Below are positions 2,511 through 17,604 of a DNA stretch of 20,000 bases, piece after piece. The stretch comes from an uncultured virus (IMG/VR IMGVR_UViG_2630968826_000003). Lineage: Duplodnaviria; Heunggongvirae; Uroviricota; Caudoviricetes. The stretch's first letter is position 1. Each line of letters starts with the position of its first letter. The DNA is taken from the IMG/VR virus record IMGVR_UViG_2630968826_000003. One strand, given 5' to 3'. The position numbers were made by a program, and so were the translations under genes. Under the pieces are notes generated by a model, which was not told the DNA's origin, ran no database searches, and saw only the letters and a program-made list of their open reading frames with translations.

Positions 2511-3086
2511 GTGTTCACTATGAATTTAGAGACGGGTGCGCGTGAGGCTATCGAACGCATATGTGAGGTTTACGGATTCACATCGCGTAACCAATTAGCT
2601 AAACATATTGGAATCACTAACAGTTCGCTTGGTAATAGGATAATGCGGGATAACTTTCCAGCAGATATTGCAATTAGATGTGCGCTTGAAACAGGGGCCG
2701 CATTGCATTGGCTTGTTACAGGCGATGGCCCGAAATTCGATCATGCCTTCAGTGATACCGTAAGAATTCCTTCATATAAATTTGAAGGAACAAAATTGGT
2801 GAAAACAGCATCATTTTTGTTCGATAAGGCAATGCTTCCCGACCACGTAGGCAACCCGGAAATCATCACCGAAGGAAACGCCAAATATCTGGTTGATAGA
2901 GCCGACTACCCCGCTGCCGATGGCAAATATCTGATTGAATACTCCGAAACCCAAAGCATTAAAGAACTAACACTATTACCGGGTAATAAGCTGCGCATCG
3001 ACTGGGGAAAATACCCGCTCGATTGTGAAATCGGCGACGTAAAAATAATAGGCAAAGTCATCATGACGATGGTGGTTAACACTTAA
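2511..3086 (+). CDS. cI: Phage 186-type CI immunity repressor
   Basis: AIERICEVYGFTSRNQLAKHIGI..RDNFPAD..CALETGAALHWLVTG is the 186 CI N-terminal HTH; start may be ATG 2520; stop overlaps the int start. Confidence 0.9.
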   Translation: MFTMNLETGAREAIERICEVYGFTSRNQLAKHIGITNSSLGNRIMRDNFPADIAIRCALETGAALHWLVTGDGPKFDHAFSDTVRIPSYKFEGTKLVKTASFLFDKAMLPDHVGNPEIITEGNAKYLVDRADYPAADGKYLIEYSETQSIKELTLLPGNKLRIDWGKYPLDCEIGDVKIIGKVIMTMVVNT

Positions 3087-4096
3087 TGGCGGTTCGTAAA
3101 ATAGACTCTGGCGAATGGCTATGCGACCTGCGGCCTACTGGCGTCAAGGGAAAACGCATTCGCAAAAAATTTGCCACTAAAGGCGAAGCGCTGGCTTATG
3201 AAAAATACATTGCCAGCGAAATGGAAGAAAAGCCATGGTTAGGTGAAAAGCAAGATAATCGACGACTATCAGAACTGATTGAACAGTGGCACGACCTTTA
3301 CGGCCGTACACTCTCTGATGCGGATCGGATGATGTCAAAATTGAAAGGTATCTGTGCGGGCATGGGCGATCCCATAGCGGCACAAATCACATCCGCAGAT
3401 TTTAGCCAATATCGTGAGGGCCGATTAAAAGGTGAAATTCCCGATGTTAACGGTCGACTAATGCCGATACAGCCCCAGACGGTAAATCATGAGCAGCGCA
3501 ACCTCTCAGCTGTATTTGGTACGCTAAAAAAACTGGGGCACTGGTCATTACCTAATCCTCTGGCAGGTATTCCAACATTCAAAGTTGATGAAAAAATGGT
3601 TTCTTTTTTGTACCCAGAAGAGATCAAAAGCCTGCTGCAATACCTATCAGAATCAAGCAGTGATAGCGTACTTATAATCACCAAAATCTGCTTGGCTACA
3701 GGGGCCAGATGGAGTGAGGCCGAAAATTTAGAAGGTGCGCAGGTCACGCCGTATCGGATAACCTACAAGAACACCAAAAATGGAAGAGTCAGATCGATTC
3801 CTATCTCGAAAGAACTGTATGACGAAATTCCGAAAAAACGTGGGCGTTTGTTCACGCCATGCCGTAAGACTTTTGAACGAGTAGTGGCTAAAGCGGGCAT
3901 TGAGTTACCTGACGGGCAATGCACACACGTACTGCGTCATACATTTGCCAGTCATTTTATGATGAACGGTGGAAACATCCTTGTCCTCAAAGAAATACTT
4001 GGGCATTCAGATATAAAAATGACAATGATTTACGCACATTTCGCGCCTACACATTTAGAAGATGCTGTACTTAAAAACCCTTTGGCTAACCTTTAA
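3086..4096 (+). CDS. int: P2/186/HP1-family tyrosine integrase
   Basis: 336 aa; TGARWSE, HVLRHTFASH, LGHSDIKMTMIYAH catalytic motifs; adjacent to att. Confidence 0.95.
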   Translation: MAVRKIDSGEWLCDLRPTGVKGKRIRKKFATKGEALAYEKYIASEMEEKPWLGEKQDNRRLSELIEQWHDLYGRTLSDADRMMSKLKGICAGMGDPIAAQITSADFSQYREGRLKGEIPDVNGRLMPIQPQTVNHEQRNLSAVFGTLKKLGHWSLPNPLAGIPTFKVDEKMVSFLYPEEIKSLLQYLSESSSDSVLIITKICLATGARWSEAENLEGAQVTPYRITYKNTKNGRVRSIPISKELYDEIPKKRGRLFTPCRKTFERVVAKAGIELPDGQCTHVLRHTFASHFMMNGGNILVLKEILGHSDIKMTMIYAHFAPTHLEDAVLKNPLANL

Positions 4097-4099
4097 CGA

Positions 4100-4195
4100 G
4101 ATCCACATAGTGTCCATTCAGCGTGTCAGTGGCTGTTATTAATTGTCAGTGATTGTTAATCATCCCTTTGATTTATAACATAACTCATTGTTTTT
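4100..4195. promoter_or_regulatory. Phage att arm: Int arm-type, Apl/Cox and IHF-like sites
   Basis: ATCCACA/TGTCCAT pair (~4101-4117); TGTCAGT/TGTTATT/TGTCAGT/TGTTAAT at 10-bp period (4124-4160); IHF-like TAACTCATTGTTT at 4181. Confidence 0.5.
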
Positions 4196-4212
4196 CTGTA
4201 CCTATTGGAAGA

Positions 4213-4257
4213 ATGTAGGAATTTCGGACGCGGGTTCAACTCCCGCCAGCTCCACCA
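4213..4257 (+). repeat. Duplicated 3' end of ssrA (tmRNA): attR of the prophage and left att of the second island
   Basis: ATGTAGGAATTTCGGACGCGGGTTCAACTCCCGCCAGCTCCACCA matches the enterobacterial tmRNA 3' T-arm/acceptor end; upstream sequence is not ssrA, so this is a fragment. Confidence 0.93.
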
Positions 4258-4291
4258 CTTTTTAGTTGTTTGAAGTACAATGAAGTCTACT

Positions 4292-4325
4292 AAGCCCGCA
4301 TGGAACCAGCCTTGCGGGCTTTTTT
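4292..4325 (+). terminator. Rho-independent terminator after the ssrA fragment
   Basis: AAGCCCGCA-N12-TGCGGGCTT followed by a T-run. Confidence 0.85.
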
Positions 4326-4370
4326 ACGTCTATAGTAGTCTAGTGAGAATTGCTGAGAACTATCACTTAT

Positions 4371-4420
4371 GGCACCCTGAATGGGACCCACAACGAAGGG
4401 TCCTAAAATCGAGGGTCCCA
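4371..4420. promoter_or_regulatory. Putative integrase arm-binding repeats
   Basis: GGCACCC, GGGACCC, GGGTCCT, GGGTCCC clustered immediately before the int start codon. Confidence 0.5.
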
Positions 4421-4422
4421 AA

Positions 4423-5652
4423 ATGGCAAAAATCGCTAAGAAGCTCACTGACACTGAAATCAAAAGCACCAAGCCAGCCGACAAAGAAATCAACTTGTTT
4501 GACGGAGATGGTTTGATACTACGAATCGCTCCCCTCTCGAAAGGAGGGAAGAAGAATTGGTATTTCAGGTATGCAGTGCCAGTGACCAAAAAGCGAACTA
4601 AAGTAAGCTTAGGAACCTATCCTCATCTTACACTTGCCAAGGCACGAGCTTTACGTGAAGAATACCTTTCCTTGCTTGCCAATGGCATTGATCCTCAAGT
4701 CCATAACAACGATAAAGCTAATGCCTTAAAGAACGCCACTGAACATACTCTCCAAGCCGTGGCAAGGAAATGGTTGGAGGAGAAGGTAAAGACCTCAGGT
4801 ATCTCACAAGACCATGCAGAAGACATCTGGCGAAGCCTGGAGAGAAATATCTTTCCCGGCTTGGGTAATGTTCCTGTCAATGAGATTCGACCCAAACTCT
4901 TAAAGCAACATCTTGACCCTATTGAGCAACGAGGAGTCCTCGAAACTTTACGGCGAATCATTTCCCGCCTGAATGAAATTTTCCGCTATGCAGCAACAGA
5001 AGAACTCATAGAGTTCAATCCGGCTGACAACCTGGGGCAACGGTTCAGTAAGCCTAAAAAACAGAATATGCCAGCATTACCCCCTTCCGAATTACCCCGC
5101 TTTCTATTGGTGTTAAACAATGCCTCTGTCCGTTTGGAGACTCGATTGCTGATTGAATGGCAGTTACTGACCTGGGTTCGTCCTGGTGAAGCTGTACGCA
5201 CAAGATGGGCTGATATAGATATCGATAATTCAGTGTGGAACATCCCAGCTGAGTTTATGAAAATGAAGAAGCCTCACAAAGTTCCACTAAGCAAAGAAGC
5301 TTTGAGAGTCCTGGAGTCAATGAAAGCGATAAGTGGGCATCGTGAATGGGTGTTTCCAAGCATAAAGGCTCCTCTTAACCATATGCATGAACAAACAGCT
5401 AATGCGGCCATAATCCGTATGGGCTTTGGGGGAGAGCTTGTAGCCCATGGAATGAGATCAATAGCACGTACGGCCGCAGAGGAGTCTGGTAAATTCAGAA
5501 CAGATGTCTTAGAAGCGGCCCTTGCCCACTCGAAGAAAGATGAAATAATTGCAGCTTACAATCGTGCTGAGTATCTCGCTGAACGAGTTGGTCTCATGCA
5601 GTGGTGGAGTGATTATTTGCGGTCTCAAAGACACAAAAGTATTGCGGCCTGA
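4423..5652 (+). CDS. intA: CP4-57 IntA/SlpA-like (P4-family) tyrosine integrase
   Basis: MAKIAKKLTDTEIKSTKP..LFDGDGL arm-binding domain; VRPGE, HGMRSIART, LAH, AYNR motifs; start at 4423 preferred (409 aa). Confidence 0.92.
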   Translation: MAKIAKKLTDTEIKSTKPADKEINLFDGDGLILRIAPLSKGGKKNWYFRYAVPVTKKRTKVSLGTYPHLTLAKARALREEYLSLLANGIDPQVHNNDKANALKNATEHTLQAVARKWLEEKVKTSGISQDHAEDIWRSLERNIFPGLGNVPVNEIRPKLLKQHLDPIEQRGVLETLRRIISRLNEIFRYAATEELIEFNPADNLGQRFSKPKKQNMPALPPSELPRFLLVLNNASVRLETRLLIEWQLLTWVRPGEAVRTRWADIDIDNSVWNIPAEFMKMKKPHKVPLSKEALRVLESMKAISGHREWVFPSIKAPLNHMHEQTANAAIIRMGFGGELVAHGMRSIARTAAEESGKFRTDVLEAALAHSKKDEIIAAYNRAEYLAERVGLMQWWSDYLRSQRHKSIAA

Positions 5653-5999
5653 ATAAAAAAATTTTTAAAGAAAACAATAGAATACTCAAAAATAAACTCT
5701 CTGTATATTGTACCTATTATACTTCTTTAAAAATCAAAGGATATCAATGTATATGCAGAGATGCACCCTTAATAAATGTTTCAACTAAAGATCCAATATA
5801 TGAAACCAATATACACAACATGTAAAGATGATGCCTATGCTTAGTAAGCATCTTTACACAATGAATTCACTGCCATTCATTTTTTAGCAATCCGATCAAA
5901 CCTTGATTTTGTCAAATTTCAGTTTAGATAAAACACTAATCTTATACAAAACTTCATTGAAGGAACAATTCCCCCCCTGAAAATTAACCATGAAACCTT

Positions 6000-7412
6000 C
6001 TACTTCAAATCAGCCAGTTCTTTTTCTTTTATAAATTTTGTTTTCACCCCCAACAAACTATATATATAACCACCACGTTCAATTAACCTATCATCGTTTG
6101 TTAGGAAGTAATCAGCTTTCCAAGCATGTGCTAAATGCTGAACATCCTGGTAGCTCGATAGTATTTTTTTCTTATCACGAACCCTTTCAGTTTTATAATT
6201 AATAATATCTAAAAATTCGCTAACTCTCTCTATAATTTCAACATAATCGAAGTCTTTATCAACACTAATTCTCCCTGCTTTCATGTCCTCTAGATCGAAT
6301 TGGTTTGTTATATTCAACAAAACACTTTGTAAAAAATCGAAAAAACTGGCATTGATATCATTTATCATGATATTTTTTGTAGAATCAATAGCCATGAAAA
6401 AATCAGATATATCATCATTGATTTTTGAAACTATTCTGCTATCTTTTCGTACAAATGGATATGCGAAATAGTTTAATTTAGCTTTATAATACTTTATATT
6501 TTCAGCAACCGAAGTCGCAGGTAACCATTCAATAACTCTATTAACCAAAGTATAAAACTCTTCTTTCACATAGCGTATTTCATTATTAACCTTGGAAATA
6601 AAAACACCATTTGTAAGTTTTAATACTTGTGCCAAGTATAAATTAAAATATACATAATCCATTTTAATCCCATCTTCAACCAAATAAGGACTAAACACAA
6701 ACACATACTCACCACTTTCTTTTAAAGAATTCAAAAGCGACCGGAGTTTTTTATTTTTCTCAGAACAATATGCACTAATAATATTTTGATCTATATATAC
6801 AACTTTTTTATTGTGAAGTAAATTCTCTGCATCAACTTGCTCATACTCTATTAGCTGATCAACAGCTAATGAAGCGTAATTTGATATGTCATCACATGAT
6901 TGAATTTTTTTATAAGAAAAATACTCCACCATAAAAGCATTATAATTAGCATCAATGGAAGAGTAAAACTTTGTTAGTTCATTCCTCATATCATCATCTT
7001 TTAAAACAAAATGCATGAAACTATAGTTCTTATATAAACTACAAATAACAATCTCCATAGGGACATTACTATTAAAACCAAAAATGCGTAAAATTTCGCT
7101 ATAAAAAATGTCATTATCCTTTATAAGAGTTTCGCAATTCATTTTGAAATCACTTAGCTTACTACTAATCATACAAAGATCATAATAATGCACAGAAAAA
7201 TCATTATTTATTGGGAGGCTTATTTCCTTTATTTTATCAATGTTATTTTTAGTGAAATCTGAAATTACTTGTGATAAATCGCAGTATGTTTTGTATTTAT
7301 CCGTATAAGTATAATCGATTAGATGATATAAATCACTACTAATTAGATCAATATACTCAGTCAATATAACCAATGCAGATTTTGATAAAATTTTAATATG
7401 GTCAATTTCCAT
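6000..7412 (-). CDS. Hypothetical protein with a C-terminal PIN-like ribonuclease domain
   Basis: 470 aa; VYIDQNII..SPYLVED..DVQHLAHAWKADYFLTNDDRL matches the PIN acidic-residue pattern; N-terminal ~195 aa unrecognised. Confidence 0.65.
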   Translation of the reverse strand: MEIDHIKILSKSALVILTEYIDLISSDLYHLIDYTYTDKYKTYCDLSQVISDFTKNNIDKIKEISLPINNDFSVHYYDLCMISSKLSDFKMNCETLIKDNDIFYSEILRIFGFNSNVPMEIVICSLYKNYSFMHFVLKDDDMRNELTKFYSSIDANYNAFMVEYFSYKKIQSCDDISNYASLAVDQLIEYEQVDAENLLHNKKVVYIDQNIISAYCSEKNKKLRSLLNSLKESGEYVFVFSPYLVEDGIKMDYVYFNLYLAQVLKLTNGVFISKVNNEIRYVKEEFYTLVNRVIEWLPATSVAENIKYYKAKLNYFAYPFVRKDSRIVSKINDDISDFFMAIDSTKNIMINDINASFFDFLQSVLLNITNQFDLEDMKAGRISVDKDFDYVEIIERVSEFLDIINYKTERVRDKKKILSSYQDVQHLAHAWKADYFLTNDDRLIERGGYIYSLLGVKTKFIKEKELADLK

Positions 7413-12399: not shown

Positions 12400-12662
12400 A
12401 TGCGTAAAGCCCGTTTTACTGAGCATCAGATCATCACTGTGATTAAGTCGGTTGAAGCTGGACGAACCGTTAAAGATGTCTGCCGGGAGGCCGGTATCTC
12501 TGAGGCCACCTACTATAACTGGAAGTCCAGATACGGCGGCATGGAAGCTTCTGATATTAAAAAGATAAAAGATCTTGAGGACGAGAACCGACGCCTCAAA
12601 CAGATGTTTGCCGACCTGAGCCTTGAGAACCGGGCGCTGAAAGACGTTATCGAAAAAAAGCT

Positions 12663-12666
<4 letters not shown>
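12400..12666 (+). CDS. IS3-family transposase OrfA
   Basis: MRKARFTEHQII..VCREAGISEATYYNWK HTH; ends at the A7G -1 frameshift motif. Confidence 0.92.
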
Positions 12667-14693
<2,027 letters not shown>

Positions 14694-14777
14694 TGAGGCA
14701 CCTGTAATGTTCTGAGGTGAGCATATCACCTCTGTTCAGGTGGCCAAATTCAGTAAACCACTTCATCCTCTGCTCTA

Positions 14778-14807
14778 TTGCTAACCACATGAATATGATC
14801 ATAAAAT
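14778..14807 (+). promoter_or_regulatory. Putative sigma70 promoter of the RT locus
   Basis: TTGCTA-18 bp-TAAAAT immediately before the structured region. Confidence 0.5.
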
Positions 14808-14809
14808 AT

Positions 14810-15124
14810 CCCCGCTAGTACCTAGGAGAGAGCTCCTCGCAAAAGCTTGATGGTCTGCTCGTCAGCCATCGTGGAGGCTTCGGCCTCTATTCTCTCCCCA
14901 CACGACGCATGCCACACGTTCTCAATGTTCCAACGTTACGATGCTAACGCATCACCAACGCTCTGGTACTTGCTGTAACAGTTGGGATTGCCGGATTGTG
15001 GCGAGGGGACGTCACACAGTGACGTCGAATACTGGGGTTAATTGCTGAACATCTCTTATTCCTGTCAGTTCAGGCGAGGCCGGTAACCATAGTGGTGACC
15101 GGGAACTGAGAAGGAGATGTAATT
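14810..15124 (+). ncRNA. RT-associated structured ncRNA (atypical retron msr-msd-like leader)
   Basis: ORF-free and GC-richer, with nested helices: GGAGAGAG/TTCTCTCC (14825/14890), GATGG/CCATC, GAGGC-TTCG-GCCTC, GCCACA/TGTGGC, CCAAC/GTTGG, GTTAC/GTAAC, GATGC-TAAC-GCATC, GACGTCAC-ACA-GTGACGTC, and a long hairpin at 15049-15120. Confidence 0.8.
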
Positions 15125-15352
15125 ATGAGTCGTAAGACACGTAAACGTCGAAAGACAAATACAAGTCGAAAGACACGTAAAAAATACCAGGCTAGTGTTC
15201 AGCAAACGTTTTGTGTGAAGGAAAGACTAAAGAAATACTCCAAAGATGCCGGTAAGCTCTTGTTTACCTTAGTTATCAGCGAAGTGATTTCTGCTGTTTT
15301 TCATTCTGAAGCTGTTGCCTCCATCTTTGCATCCATCAAGGGATTCCTGTAA
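15125..15352 (+). CDS. Small protein with Arg/Lys-rich N-terminus and hydrophobic C-terminal helix; candidate RT-system effector
   Basis: 75 aa, AAGGAG RBS at 15111, lies between the ncRNA and the RT. Confidence 0.7.
   Translation: MSRKTRKRRKTNTSRKTRKKYQASVQQTFCVKERLKKYSKDAGKLLFTLVISEVISAVFHSEAVASIFASIKGFL
15128..15181 (+). repeat. Three imperfect 18-bp tandem repeats, each with a GTC-GNRA-GAC mini-hairpin
   Basis: AGTCGTAAGACACGTAAA / CGTCGAAAGACAAATACA / AGTCGAAAGACACGTAAA. Confidence 0.75.
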
Positions 15353-15382
15353 TGGAGGCTATAATGGATAGGAACAACAACG

Positions 15383-16342
15383 ATGAAAAGCACAAAACGT
15401 ACCCCTAGTCTTCAAAGTCCCCCAAAGATTTATCCCCTGAATCAATCGCCTCTATTCAAGCTTAAAAATAAAAGAAAATTACTTGAAATCATAGGGCTAT
15501 CCAAGAAACAAGCAGACAAGCTAATGCTTGACTCAGCGTACAAAGAATTTGTAAATGATGCCGGAAGGACAATACAGGAACCAATTGCTCAGCTCAAAGC
15601 GGTTCATAGGAAAATCGGCGTTTTATTGAGCAGAATCGAACTACCTCCATATCTTCACTCTGGTCGGAAGAAGCATTCAACACTTACTAATGTAGAATCA
15701 CATAAGCTAGCAACTGAACTTCTGAAACTCGACATTCATAAGTTTTTCCCCTCGACTAGGGCTGCAAAGGTCTACAAGGCACTTGTAGAAAAATTTGAGA
15801 TGTCACCTGATGTATCTTATATCATGACCAATCTCTCAACCTTTGCAGGAAAAGTGCCCACAGGCAGTCCGATAAGCATGGCTATGGCGTTTTGGGCCAA
15901 TAAAGACATGTTCGACGAGCTTAGCAACCTTGCGGCCTCAAACAGCTTAGTATTTACGGCATATGTTGACGATGTGGCGTTCTCTGGTTCGAAAATCCCA
16001 AAAGGATTTGCCGCCCAAGCTAAAAAATGTATTCGTTCCCATGGACTCACCTCTAAAGACAAAAAAGAGCGATTTTATCCGTCATCAGAGGGAAAGCTGC
16101 TTACGGGGATAGTCATTCGGGATGGGGAACTTAAGGTACGTTGGGCACATAACGATTCAATCGGAAAAGAATTCGCTACTTTGGCTGAAGCAAAAGACAA
16201 CGCTACAAAAATAATCCATCTAGAAAAGCTAGCAGGTAAGCTGCATGCAGCCGGTCAGGTTGACTTCAGACAAAAAGATAGAGCTCGTTTTTTTACACAG
16301 CAGCTCAAAGCCGCAAAAAAGCGCTCAGAACAAGGTACTTAA
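15383..16342 (+). CDS. Retron-like reverse transcriptase
   Basis: 319 aa; RTIQEP, NVESH (region X NAxxH-like), LDIHKFFPS, PTGSPIS, YVDD, LTG (region Y VTG-like); no maturase/endonuclease extension. Confidence 0.92.
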   Translation: MKSTKRTPSLQSPPKIYPLNQSPLFKLKNKRKLLEIIGLSKKQADKLMLDSAYKEFVNDAGRTIQEPIAQLKAVHRKIGVLLSRIELPPYLHSGRKKHSTLTNVESHKLATELLKLDIHKFFPSTRAAKVYKALVEKFEMSPDVSYIMTNLSTFAGKVPTGSPISMAMAFWANKDMFDELSNLAASNSLVFTAYVDDVAFSGSKIPKGFAAQAKKCIRSHGLTSKDKKERFYPSSEGKLLTGIVIRDGELKVRWAHNDSIGKEFATLAEAKDNATKIIHLEKLAGKLHAAGQVDFRQKDRARFFTQQLKAAKKRSEQGT

Positions 16343-16391
16343 AACAGCAAGTAGACTAAAAGTAATTATCGTGCCATACAAGGAAAATGAT

Positions 16392-17233
16392 ATGTTGTAT
16401 CACGTTGTTATTCAAAAGAAACCAGTAAAAACTGGCAAAGATGGTGCTGAAGAAAACAAAACAGATCTCACCAAAGAGCAGCTGGTTGCTCGCTTCATAG
16501 AACCTTACGAGCTAGGCAATCCAATTACAGTAAACGGCACGACTATTCAAACATCAGAAATCAACAGATTAACTGTTAAGGCTACTGAAACCAGCATTGA
16601 ATCTTTTATACCTGCGATAGAAGCAGAAGATCGAAATTCAAGTGTGATTATGTTTGGCGGACCGTCTTACCTAGAACGTGCGATATATCGAGCTCCTGAT
16701 GTAACTGATGAATTCATCACTGGTCCCGCTGGCAGCAAAAAATCGATCGCATCAAAAAAAAAACAAATAAATCAACAACAAACGCAAACTCTGACAAAGT
16801 TTTCATTGTTCACGGGCATGATGATGCAGCGAAGATCAAGACTGCTCGTTTTGTAGAACAATTGGATTACAAAGCTATTATTCTGCATGAACAAGCAAGC
16901 TCTGGTAGAACCATAATAGAGAAAATCGAGCAGTTTACTGATGTGGGATTTGCTGTTGTGCTATACACGCCGGACGATATAGGCAATGCCAAAGGCAATG
17001 CAGACGACCTACAGTTAAGAGCCCGTCAAAACGTTGTTTTCGAACATGGTTTTTTGATAGGTAAGTTAGGAAGAGATCGTGTAGTAGCTTTGGTTGATGG
17101 AGCAATAGAACTTCCGAATGATATTAGTGGGGTCGTCTACATAAAAATGGACGAGGCAAACGCATGGCATCTTCAGTTAGCCAAAGAAATGAAACAAGCT
17201 GGTTTTAACATTGATATGAACAAGCTTGTGTAA
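16392..17233 (+). pseudogene. TIR-like nucleotide-binding domain protein (CAP12/Pycsar-type TIR), frameshifted at an A10 run
   Basis: Start MLYHVVIQ after an AAGGA RBS; a -1 shift at A16754-16763 joins it to KVFIVHGHD..ILHEQ..TIIEK..FAVVLYTPDD..RARQNVVFEHG..LPNDISGVVY; ~280 aa if restored. Confidence 0.85.
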
Positions 17234-17320
17234 CCACTTGAAAATTACTGCCTTAATGTGACATTGACTCCCGCTACATTGCTCAAAGAGTCAGACAGTT
17301 AGTATTTGGTGTTGCTCTCA

Positions 17321-17333
17321 GCCAGCTCCACCA
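17321..17333 (+). repeat. Right att of the island (13-bp ssrA 3' end copy)
   Basis: GCCAGCTCCACCA identical to 4245-4257, followed by a terminator. Confidence 0.85.
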
Positions 17334-17366
17334 AATAATGATCCGGATACGTCCGGCGAAGTACAG

Positions 17367-17401
17367 AAAGCCCGCACAGCACAAGCTCTGCGGGCTTTTT
17401 T
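17367..17401 (+). terminator. Rho-independent terminator
   Basis: AAAGCCCGCA-N12-TGCGGGCTTT plus T-run; same stem as 4292-4325. Confidence 0.85.
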
Positions 17402-17604
17402 ACATCTATTGCCGCCTGGTGAGGATTGCAGAGAACCTTACGGACACTGGAGTCAAATGACGCGGTGGGTAAAGCGGCTGCGCGATGGGTGACAGGGCAA
17501 AACGCCAAAAGTCTCACCAATAACTCCCGAAAGAATTGGAATACGAGAGTCAAAGAAAATAGAACACTCACTGAGAGTCCTGCCTGGCTGGGGCAAAGCT
17601 CGCA

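Follow-up and report, generated by a model that had tools for sequence, protein, structure and literature searches.

The stretch of DNA considered here (the window) comprises 20,000 nucleotides (nt) of an uncultured virus of the Caudoviricetes (IMG/VR record IMGVR_UViG_2630968826_000003) and carries a retron composed of a structured non-coding RNA, a small protein (SP) open reading frame (ORF) and a reverse transcriptase (RT) gene. A preliminary description, made from the sequence alone, had proposed that a long hairpin buries the Shine-Dalgarno (SD) sequence of the small ORF and acts as a translational OFF switch linked to the RT RNA, much as in type VI retrons. From the analysis presented here, the hairpin is very probably the ribosome binding site (RBS) stem-loop within the riboregulator arm of a hybrid RNA (hyRNA) belonging to a type VI retron; with less assurance, a translational OFF function is favored for it. 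The principal features are the following.

14778..14807, + strand: sigma-70-like promoter of the retron RNA (TTGCTA, 18 nt, TAAAAT; 9 of 12 matches in a consensus scan)
about 14825..15402, + strand: abundant hybrid RNA that comprises a template arm, a riboregulator arm and the entire SP ORF and runs 20 nt into the RT ORF
15049..15120, + strand: SD-sequestering hairpin (basal stem, 9 bp; middle stem, 7 bp plus 1; apical stem, 5 plus 4 bp)
15111..15116, + strand: Shine-Dalgarno sequence AAGGAG of the SP ORF, 8 nt before the ATG at 15125 and paired in both alternative folds
15123..15144, + strand: small stem-loop with the SP start codon (15123-27 with 15140-44; probability of being unpaired 0.02-0.04)
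15125..15352, + strand: SP ORF of 75 amino acids (aa), a putative toxic effector that is basic at its N-terminus and hydrophobic and amphipathic at its C-terminus
15383..16342, + strand: retron reverse transcriptase of 319 aa with a YVDD motif (PADLOC RT_VI; Pfam RVT_1)

Type VI retrons, as delimited in the relevant part of Mestre et al. 2020 (PMC7736814), belong to retron RT clade 3 and combine a small accessory protein encoded upstream of the RT with an adjacent Cro/C1-type helix-turn-helix (HTH) protein of 91-110 aa (cluster 2_1). The RT of the window aligns with the PADLOC RT_VI profile at 1.8e-78 over 277 of 279 profile positions; the next profile is RT_III-A at 2.9e-39. The likeness to type VI retrons noted in the preliminary description is borne out by this score, by the anatomy of the RNA and the RNA reads, and by the homology of the hairpin with those of canonical type VI loci. 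RT relatives at 86-100% identity were identified in four species genomes (Enterobacter chinensis, E. mori, Klebsiella michiganensis and Kosakonia oryziphila), nine metagenome contigs and two viral contigs. The resulting lineage alignment holds 16 sequences including the window; over the 645 nt that precede the RT and extend into it, 12 of them are distinct. All 12 are colinear in the order promoter, non-coding RNA, SP, 30 nt and RT, and their flanks differ. Neither megablast nor blastn produced a match among 20,395 E. coli records, nor did blastn among 72,556 plasmids, and a phage collection contained two short unannotated records that are 100% identical.

The SP ORF has a dN/dS ratio (nonsynonymous to synonymous substitution rates) of 0.25-0.32 in deep comparisons. 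SP matched no Pfam or PADLOC family and had no detectable similarity to the SPs of six canonical loci. Its own family consists of 18 clusters, all at least 54% identical and all named 'hypothetical'. An AlphaFold2 model calculated from a 9-row alignment was all-helical but too weak for fold comparison (predicted local distance difference test, pLDDT = 72; predicted template modeling score, pTM = 0.31), and the best score in the ESM Atlas, 0.78, is at chance level. The basic N-terminus (15129-15182) is encoded by three tandem 18-nt units. Four members of the lineage (L003, L004, L042 and L043; loci other than the window are given L numbers) are without 36 nt, or two of these units, and their ORF passes the stop of the window by four codons. 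The repeated ACGUAA offers the AUG two alternative pairing partners. By analogy with the SPs of Retron-Vpa2 and Retron-Sen3, this SP would be toxic.

The three stems of the hairpin are present in the sequence where the preliminary description had placed them: ACATCTC (15049-55) with GAGATGT (15114-20), TCAGTTC (15065-71) with GAACTGA (15103-09), and CCGGT.ACCA (15080-89) with TGGT.ACCGG (15093-102). The basal stem extends to nine pairs (15049-57 with 15112-20). Folding of the 96 nt from 15040 to 15135 produced exactly this hairpin as the minimum free energy (MFE) structure, at -29.6 kcal/mol (z -2.17; 8 of 200 dinucleotide shuffles equally stable). The SD is buried as had been claimed, with five of the six bases of AAGGAG paired (A15112, G15113, G15114, A15115 and G15116). 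Longer stretches are more structured than their shuffles, with a z of -3.77 for 14790-15200 and of -4.36 for 14808-15385 (0 of 100 shuffles in each case). Within the ensemble of the whole RNA (14814-15402), the probabilities of being unpaired for the successive bases of GGAG (15113-16) are 0.02, 0.00, 0.05 and 0.16.

Three elements extend the fold beyond what had been noticed earlier, namely the AUG stem-loop, a second anti-SD sequence and a 10-bp long-range helix that encloses the hairpin. In the alignment fold, UAUG of the start codon region pairs with CGUA in 12 of 12 sequences (pairs 323-378 to 326-375). The second anti-SD is UCCU at 15060-63, which can pair with 15112-15 and which the alignment fold prefers over 15054-57. 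In the ensemble of the window RNA, the SD is split about equally between the two, and GGAG is paired in either.

A search of 14000-17500 against Rfam (evalue mode) identified no retron-RNA family; the sole matches were a spurious one to a snoRNA and one to an IsrM-like terminator at 17324-17401. The alignment fold of the whole RNA, calculated with RNAalifold, consists of three arms in which the elements below can be recognized.

14893..15007, + strand: long imperfect hairpin of arm 1, a candidate msd-like template (RNAalifold consensus) and the most variable non-coding stretch
15008..15026, + strand: predicted 8-bp hairpin GACGUCAC-ACA-GUGACGUC with a variable loop
15034..15041, + strand: junction of arms 1 and 2, GGGGTTAA, a motif found also in L006 and L007, with GGTTAA in L005
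15042..15051, + strand: 5' strand of the arm 2 closing helix, a perfect 10/10 inverted repeat with 15196-15205
15196..15215, + strand: 20-nt block within the SP ORF, of which 15196-205 pair with 15042-51 and 15206-15 with 15391-400
15391..15400, + strand: 3' strand of the arm 3 closing helix in RT codons 3-6, a perfect 10/10 repeat that is paired in 12 of 12 sequences (probability of being unpaired 0.0-0.07)

Arm 1 reaches to about 15037 and is composed of two small hairpins, the long imperfect and variable hairpin, and the 8-bp hairpin. A classical msr-msd has a branching G and flanking a1/a2 inverted repeats; when the repeats were sought, this arm was found to be closed only by a 4-bp helix, CCCC (14810-13) with GGGG (15034-37). 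Its long hairpin is less conserved between clades (82-86% identity) than the SD hairpin (87-99%), and one of its pairs (113-180) is G-C in eight sequences and A-U in four. By analogy with Vpa2, 14893-15007 is a candidate for the reverse-transcription template. Arm 2, closed by 15042-51 with 15196-205, contains the SD hairpin and the AUG stem-loop; nine of the ten pairs of its closing helix are standard in 12 of 12 sequences and the remaining one, A15051-U15196, is A-U in ten and A-C in two (L003 and L042). Arm 3, closed by 15206-15 with 15391-400, contains the remainder of the SP ORF, the RBS of the RT and the RT start. The closing helices of arms 2 and 3 abut, and two or more perfect repeats of at least 10 nt occurred in only 4 of 1000 dinucleotide shuffles. 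Within the 20-nt block that supplies a strand to each helix, 19 positions are invariant, synonymous sites included, the exception being 15196, which is C in L003 and L042. The promoter stretch is likewise invariant or nearly so in the 12 distinct sequences.

None of the indexed sequencing runs that contain the stretch is listed as RNA. Of four RNA runs whose raw reads were mapped, X13, X14 and X15 gave 0 reads, an outcome without weight either way. Transcription of the locus is documented by the fourth, the public RNA-seq run X21, in which 12,383 reads were obtained from about 6% of the run. Nearly all (99.5%) have the first mate on the - strand, which in most stranded libraries corresponds to + strand RNA. 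The depth is 0-2 before 14808, 652 over 14808-34 and 2835-6185 over 14835-14996. It amounts to 1269 over 15051-77, about 3400 (3367-3399) over 15105-85 and 848-1484 over 15213-15401, and past the end of the RNA it is 232 over 15402-28 and then 38-86, although the last bins lie near the edge of the mapped stretch and may be somewhat underestimated. The hybrid RNA is thus more than 1000 times as deep as the sequence upstream of it, a pattern in agreement with the hyRNA enrichment that was described when Vpa2 and Sen3 were expressed in E. coli.

The ends of the RNA are well defined. Left ends cluster at 14825 (371) and 14828 (630), 18-21 nt past the -10 box, whereas transcription would be expected from that box to begin at about 14812-17. 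The RNA may truly begin up to about 12 nt further left. Should the left ends be genuine, arm 1 could not be closed by its 4-bp helix. At the other side, 295 of 998 right ends fall at 15402, which is 2 nt past the arm 3 closing helix. A further set of right ends at 15034, the first G of GGGGTTAA, accounts for 1018 of about 3491 molecules (~30%) and thus indicates a shorter RNA that contains only arm 1. The ends at 15034 and at 14825/14828 could reflect processing, a footprint of RT or RNase H, or a library artefact. Antisense depth is 28-36 over 15078-15347 and 4-7 over arm 1. Since the antisense reads are lowest over arm 1, where sense depth peaks, they are not plain strand leakage. A scan also found a promoter-like site on the - strand at 15151-15122.

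Within the lineage, the hairpin is retained without exception. Its 26 pairs are standard in 311 of 311 cells across the 12 distinct sequences, in keeping with the structure that had been proposed for the window. Twenty-one pairs are constant and five change on one side only, each to a G-U pair (C-G to U-G, G-C to G-U, and A-U to G-U three times). The one mismatch in the window group, A15085 opposite G15097, is a G-C pair in the other eight sequences, and 15031-15078 is invariant in all 12. This degree of conservation (87.5-98.6% hairpin identity) stands against a synonymous divergence (dS) of 0.47-1.72 for the RT between clades. Since the tolerated changes are all G-U on the + strand, and would be A-C on the complement, the target of selection appears to be the + strand RNA rather than the opposite strand.

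The comparison was extended with a covariance model, R1, which was built for the region 14995-15130 from 11 sequences, all of them lineage members, and searched with filters off against 27 other retron loci (96,807 bases). Among the 16 matches up to an E value of 10, four fall below 0.01: L007 (1.3e-6), L048 (0.0022), L046 (0.0034) and L006 (0.0075). Each spans the full length of the model and ends at the SP start codon of an SP-HTH-RT operon. In a deep alignment of six lineage members with these four loci, pairing holds in 95.6% of 319 cells, a level attained by 0 of 500 shuffles (shuffled mean 77.2), and changes on both sides occur in 26 of 34 pairs (shuffled mean 9.7, 0 of 500; slid controls 5-11). 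For the SD hairpin itself, two-sided changes are found in 18 of 26 pairs, or 5 of 9, 7 of 8 and 6 of 9 per helix. The 8-bp hairpin at 15008-26 has them in 8 of 8 pairs once the distant loci are added. In local MFE structures, six of ten clade lineages (window, L005, L006, L046, L047 and L048) have the SD within the 3' strand of a long hairpin. By these comparisons, the hairpin and its counterparts in canonical type VI loci are homologous.

One component of the canonical type VI operon is missing from the window. There are only 30 nt between the SP stop at 15352 and the RT start at 15383 and no ORF nearby that could encode an HTH protein; L001 and L003 likewise have no gene between SP and RT. 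More distant loci were collected by profile searches of 401 genomes of the order, 40 of which matched at 1e-40 or better, and of 400 genomes of the class, 13 of which matched at 1e-65 or better and one of which was unscored. Of 18 of these type VI loci that were examined, 17 have an ORF between the SP-like ORF and the RT, and in 16 of the 17 this is a Pfam HTH_3 protein; the intervening ORF of L010 has no Pfam match, and L056 has no intervening ORF. A quick tree of 42 RTs was made, from which 13 near-identical lineage copies, loci without a tblastn hit at 1e-5 and ORFs shorter than 230 aa were omitted. In this tree the window lineage (4 rows, support 100) is nested in a 13-row clade (SH-like approximate likelihood ratio test, SH-aLRT, 99), the other nine rows of which are SP-HTH-RT loci. 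L056 lies apart from it, beside an HTH-bearing locus. Since lineages without HTH are placed inside HTH-bearing relatives, the HTH gene has most likely been lost, at least twice. The L056 locus (genome G545) is itself an unrelated type VI-like locus without HTH, in which a 76-aa SP-like ORF is followed by 62 nt and then the RT. According to figures in the preprint of Garcia-Rodriguez et al., about 78% of type VI entries carry HTH and about 22% are without it (10.64898/2026.04.27.721009). Type VI retrons without HTH are thus known as a number, and no description of them was found in the literature passages or term searches consulted.

Two preprints, as far as their pertinent sections go, disagree on how the type VI toxin is controlled. 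In Retron-Vpa2 of Vibrio parahaemolyticus, the hyRNA joins msr-msd to a toxic SP ORF, with the RBS and the AUG in stem-loops; translation of SP requires multicopy single-stranded DNA (msDNA), which accumulates on infection or upon mutation of HTH, and HTH, itself a component of the RT-hyRNA complex, represses reverse transcription (10.1101/2025.10.22.683967). The contact proposed there is a 7-nt direct repeat found both in the msd and in a riboregulator loop (10.1101/2025.10.22.683967). In Retron-Sen3, the RBS is predicted to be paired, yet SP is described as constitutive and as neutralized by HTH, an antitoxin that is needed for viability (10.64898/2026.04.27.721009). The window lineage bears on this disagreement: it keeps the RT, the structured RNA and the SP but has lost HTH, and it therefore tests whether an RNA switch is sufficient alone.

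The reading that is favored, although well short of certainty, is that the hairpin and the AUG stem-loop block translation of SP on an abundant and stable RNA, which also serves as the RT template, and that DNA made by the RT on infection opens the hairpin. The promoter at 14778-14807 would drive a + strand RNA of about 580 nt that folds into the three arms. The SD would pair with either of two pyrimidine tracts that lie upstream of it (15049-57 or 15060-63); with the AUG paired as well, SP, an abortive-infection toxin by analogy, would be untranslated in the closed fold. On infection, single-stranded DNA (ssDNA) made by the RT from arm 1 would accumulate and open the switch, as described for Vpa2. 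Toxicity of SP, silencing by the hairpin and release by msDNA are all drawn by analogy with Retron-Vpa2. Since there is no HTH gene, the RNA fold may be the sole brake on the toxin. Protein-level restraint of the Sen3 type is unavailable here, and silencing at the level of the RNA would thus be more necessary than in any characterized relative. The preference of the preliminary description for silencing of this kind, rather than protein-level neutralization, would accordingly fit the missing HTH.

Several observations weigh against this reading. Inside the lineage, 0 of 26 hairpin pairs change on both sides, and because no pair varies in this manner, the lineage shuffle control is uninformative. 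The energy of the hairpin alone (z -2.17) only modestly beats chance. R1 was without a match in five of the nine canonical clade members (L005, L010, L011, L012 and L047), and the deep alignment was fitted to the R1 structure and is hence biased towards it. Local MFE structures do not bury the SD in L007, L010 or L011 and do not clearly bury it in L012. The RNA evidence consists of one run from one study, with growth conditions unspecified and a strain that carries the L036 allele (C14860T, G15256T). Finally, Retron-Sen3 shows that a predicted sequestration of the RBS can coexist with a constitutive SP, at least as its preprint presents it.

The Sen3 precedent also speaks for the strongest of the alternatives, in which the hairpin is a structural arm of an RT-bound RNA, serving folding, stability or RT recognition, and is no switch. 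SP would then be made at a basal level and be restrained without HTH, which could be achieved by the RT itself, by the basic N-terminus of SP or by a low intrinsic toxicity. The conservation at 15031-15078 exceeds what pairing needs, including as it does the loops, and would fit a surface for protein contact; moreover, given the high depth over the SP ORF, leaky initiation could suffice to produce protein. On the other hand, no antitoxin candidate is conserved beside the locus, since the flanks differ between the window, L001 and L003, and the described Sen3 depends for viability on the very HTH that is absent here. The ensemble has the SD as well as the AUG in paired form, and the pairing of the SD is kept across lineages in which the stem sequences differ. 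A purely structural arm is for these reasons regarded as unlikely, if still deserving of attention.

Since a long hairpin beside a retron RT is classically the msd stem, the hairpin might instead be reverse transcribed into msDNA, with the burial of the SD being incidental, and the flanking helix (15042-51 with 15196-205) could then be read as an a1/a2-like pair. However, the variable positions pair through G-U in the + strand RNA, and a cDNA would have A-C mismatches there. A separate, longer and more variable hairpin (14893-15007) is located in the arm that matches the mapped template of Vpa2, as far as that template is described, and the RNA 3' end at 15034 divides arm 1 from the SD hairpin. 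In the distant loci, furthermore, the end of the hairpin invariably coincides with the SD and AUG of SP. An identity as msd stem is thus very improbable. Least credible of all, to the point of being nearly negligible, is a chance fold or a terminator or attenuator in the leader, which could appeal to the 8 of 200 equally stable shuffles but for which there is no U-tract after the stem, no terminator called there by the scan, a higher depth past the hairpin (3367-3399 over 15105-15185) than in its 5' arm (1269), and a hairpin that is kept in 12 of 12 sequences and has two-sided changes in distant loci. The msd stem and the terminator or chance fold are both contradicted by the G-U pattern, the depth and ends of the RNA, the R1 matches and the two-sided changes.

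If msDNA does open the hairpin, as the favored reading has it, the most plausible contact would involve a 7-nt repeat.

15000..15006, + strand: GGCGAGG copy 1, at the 3' end of arm 1 directly before the 8-bp hairpin
15073..15079, + strand: GGCGAGG copy 2, in the 8-nt internal loop of the SD hairpin (probability of being unpaired 0.95-1.0)

The complement of copy 1, which would be near the 5' end of the DNA, could pair with the 7-mer exposed as copy 2. GGCGAGG is the sole 7-mer common to arm 1 and the hairpin region in the window. In seven sequences of the other clades it is GGCGAGA in both copies, so that the copies change jointly, although this change represents a single split in the tree. 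GGCGA also occurs twice, at two matching places with GGGGTTAA between the copies, in L006 and L007, and in L005, where GGTTAA stands in its stead. In L042, a metagenome contig, a 21-nt deletion at the equivalent of 14997-15017 removes copy 1 together with the 5' arm of the 8-bp hairpin, and this contig is either a decaying copy or an assembly error. Two points count against the contact: 55% of shuffles share at least one 7-mer, placing one shared 7-mer at chance level, and copy 1 is paired and not looped in the consensus fold. The repeat is a good lead that fits the published idea of a 7-nt direct repeat, as far as the preprint describes it in words. A search for duplexes between the putative msDNA and arm 2 produced long, loop-riddled duplexes, ignores intramolecular structure and was uninformative; it was not used. 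On balance, contact between msDNA and the hairpin through the 7-mer is possible but somewhat doubtful.

A bolder and rather unlikely extension is that SP and RT form a self-contained two-gene retron in which the RNA structure alone replaces HTH, the hyRNA silences both toxin and RT, and msDNA triggers a positive feedback. Silencing of the RT is suggested by the stop of the abundant RNA 20 nt into the RT ORF and by arm 3, which pairs RT codons 3-6 with the SP ORF. In such a circuit, msDNA would open the SD, ribosomes reading SP would unzip arm 3, and more RT would be made, giving an all-or-none response with no protein regulator.

The surroundings of the retron provide some further context. Directly behind the RT, at 16389-17233, is a TIR gene of the PDC-S35 / CAP12-Pycsar type that is split in two frames, with ORF 16245-16856 covering profile positions 1-131 and ORF 16862-17233 covering 157-277; a run of ten A at 16754-63 is the likely slip site. 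Its absence from L001 and L003 makes this gene an additional passenger rather than a component of the retron. On the other side, an IS3-family element (13603-14765, - strand; HTH_Tnp_1 and rve ORFs) ends about 12 nt before the -35 box of the retron. Homology with the other clades starts at about 14771, and the IS3 junction is also present in L035-L037. The insertion does not silence the retron, because RNA from the L036 allele is abundant in X21. A second IS3-family copy (12400-13623) contains an N at 13340 that is flanked by a duplicated stretch with the same peptide on both sides and resembles a join made in assembly. The genes between 1630 and 11777 place the retron in an island beside the end of a P2-like prophage with a CII/CP76 regulator, a CI repressor and an integrase. 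Island genes include a second integrase with an Arm-DNA-binding domain, an N6 DNA methylase and an ORC/CDC6-like ATPase with a zinc ribbon, along with a 469-aa ORF without a Pfam match, a weakly HEPN-like ORF (E 0.012) and a membrane-like ORF. The island may be a defense island.

An SD-burying hairpin in a type VI retron RNA is already described in the two preprints, and within the full-text literature the term 'hyRNA' was found together with retron only in Zhang et al. (10.1101/2025.10.22.683967). New here are an SP-RT lineage without HTH and with its own SP family, an arm 3 helix that reaches into the RT ORF, and RNA ends from the transcriptome of a natural carrier. The locus is compact, at about 1.6 kb from promoter to RT stop, its carriers are Enterobacter, Klebsiella and Kosakonia, and its RNA is abundant and sharp-ended. 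If the favored reading is true, an RT template RNA with a DNA-responsive translational switch and no accessory protein would constitute a compact sensor-actuator for retron engineering.

Among the known systems, Retron-Vpa2 is compared by description, sequence comparison with type VI having been made through the SP-HTH-RT loci. From what is described, the two share a single abundant RNA that combines the template with the SP ORF and has three arms that branch off a central node. Each has its RBS and its start codon in separate stem-loops of the second arm, and a 7-nt direct repeat near the 3' end of the template and in the riboregulator loop may be common to both. SP has a hydrophobic C-terminus in both, and the RTs belong to the same PADLOC family. 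They differ in the HTH gene, which is present in Vpa2 and absent from the window lineage, and in the length of the RNA, which is about 580 nt here and about 470 nt in Vpa2. In addition, the 3' closing helix here is formed between the middle of the SP ORF and the first RT codons, whereas that of Vpa2 is reported to use a repeat behind SP.

Retron-Sen3 and the cl2075 lineage of type VI retrons, so far as their account extends, resemble the window lineage in their enterobacterial hosts and in the size of SP, about 75 aa, and its extended N-terminus. Their SP ORF is likewise placed in a structured RNA with long-range repeats and a predicted paired RBS, and RNA-seq enrichment runs from the non-coding RNA through the SP ORF. 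In contrast, control in Sen3 is given as post-translational and exerted by the HTH antitoxin, a protein that is absent here, and its RBS is positioned in a basal stem with a 5' repeat rather than in a local hairpin.

Type I toxin-antitoxin systems such as hok/sok offer a broader parallel. These also have a small hydrophobic toxin ORF with an SD buried in cis, on a stable and abundant mRNA that is activated by RNA refolding, and they depend on 3' processing and an antisense RNA. The retron differs in that the proposed trigger would be ssDNA made by the RT, with the mRNA doubling as the RT template.

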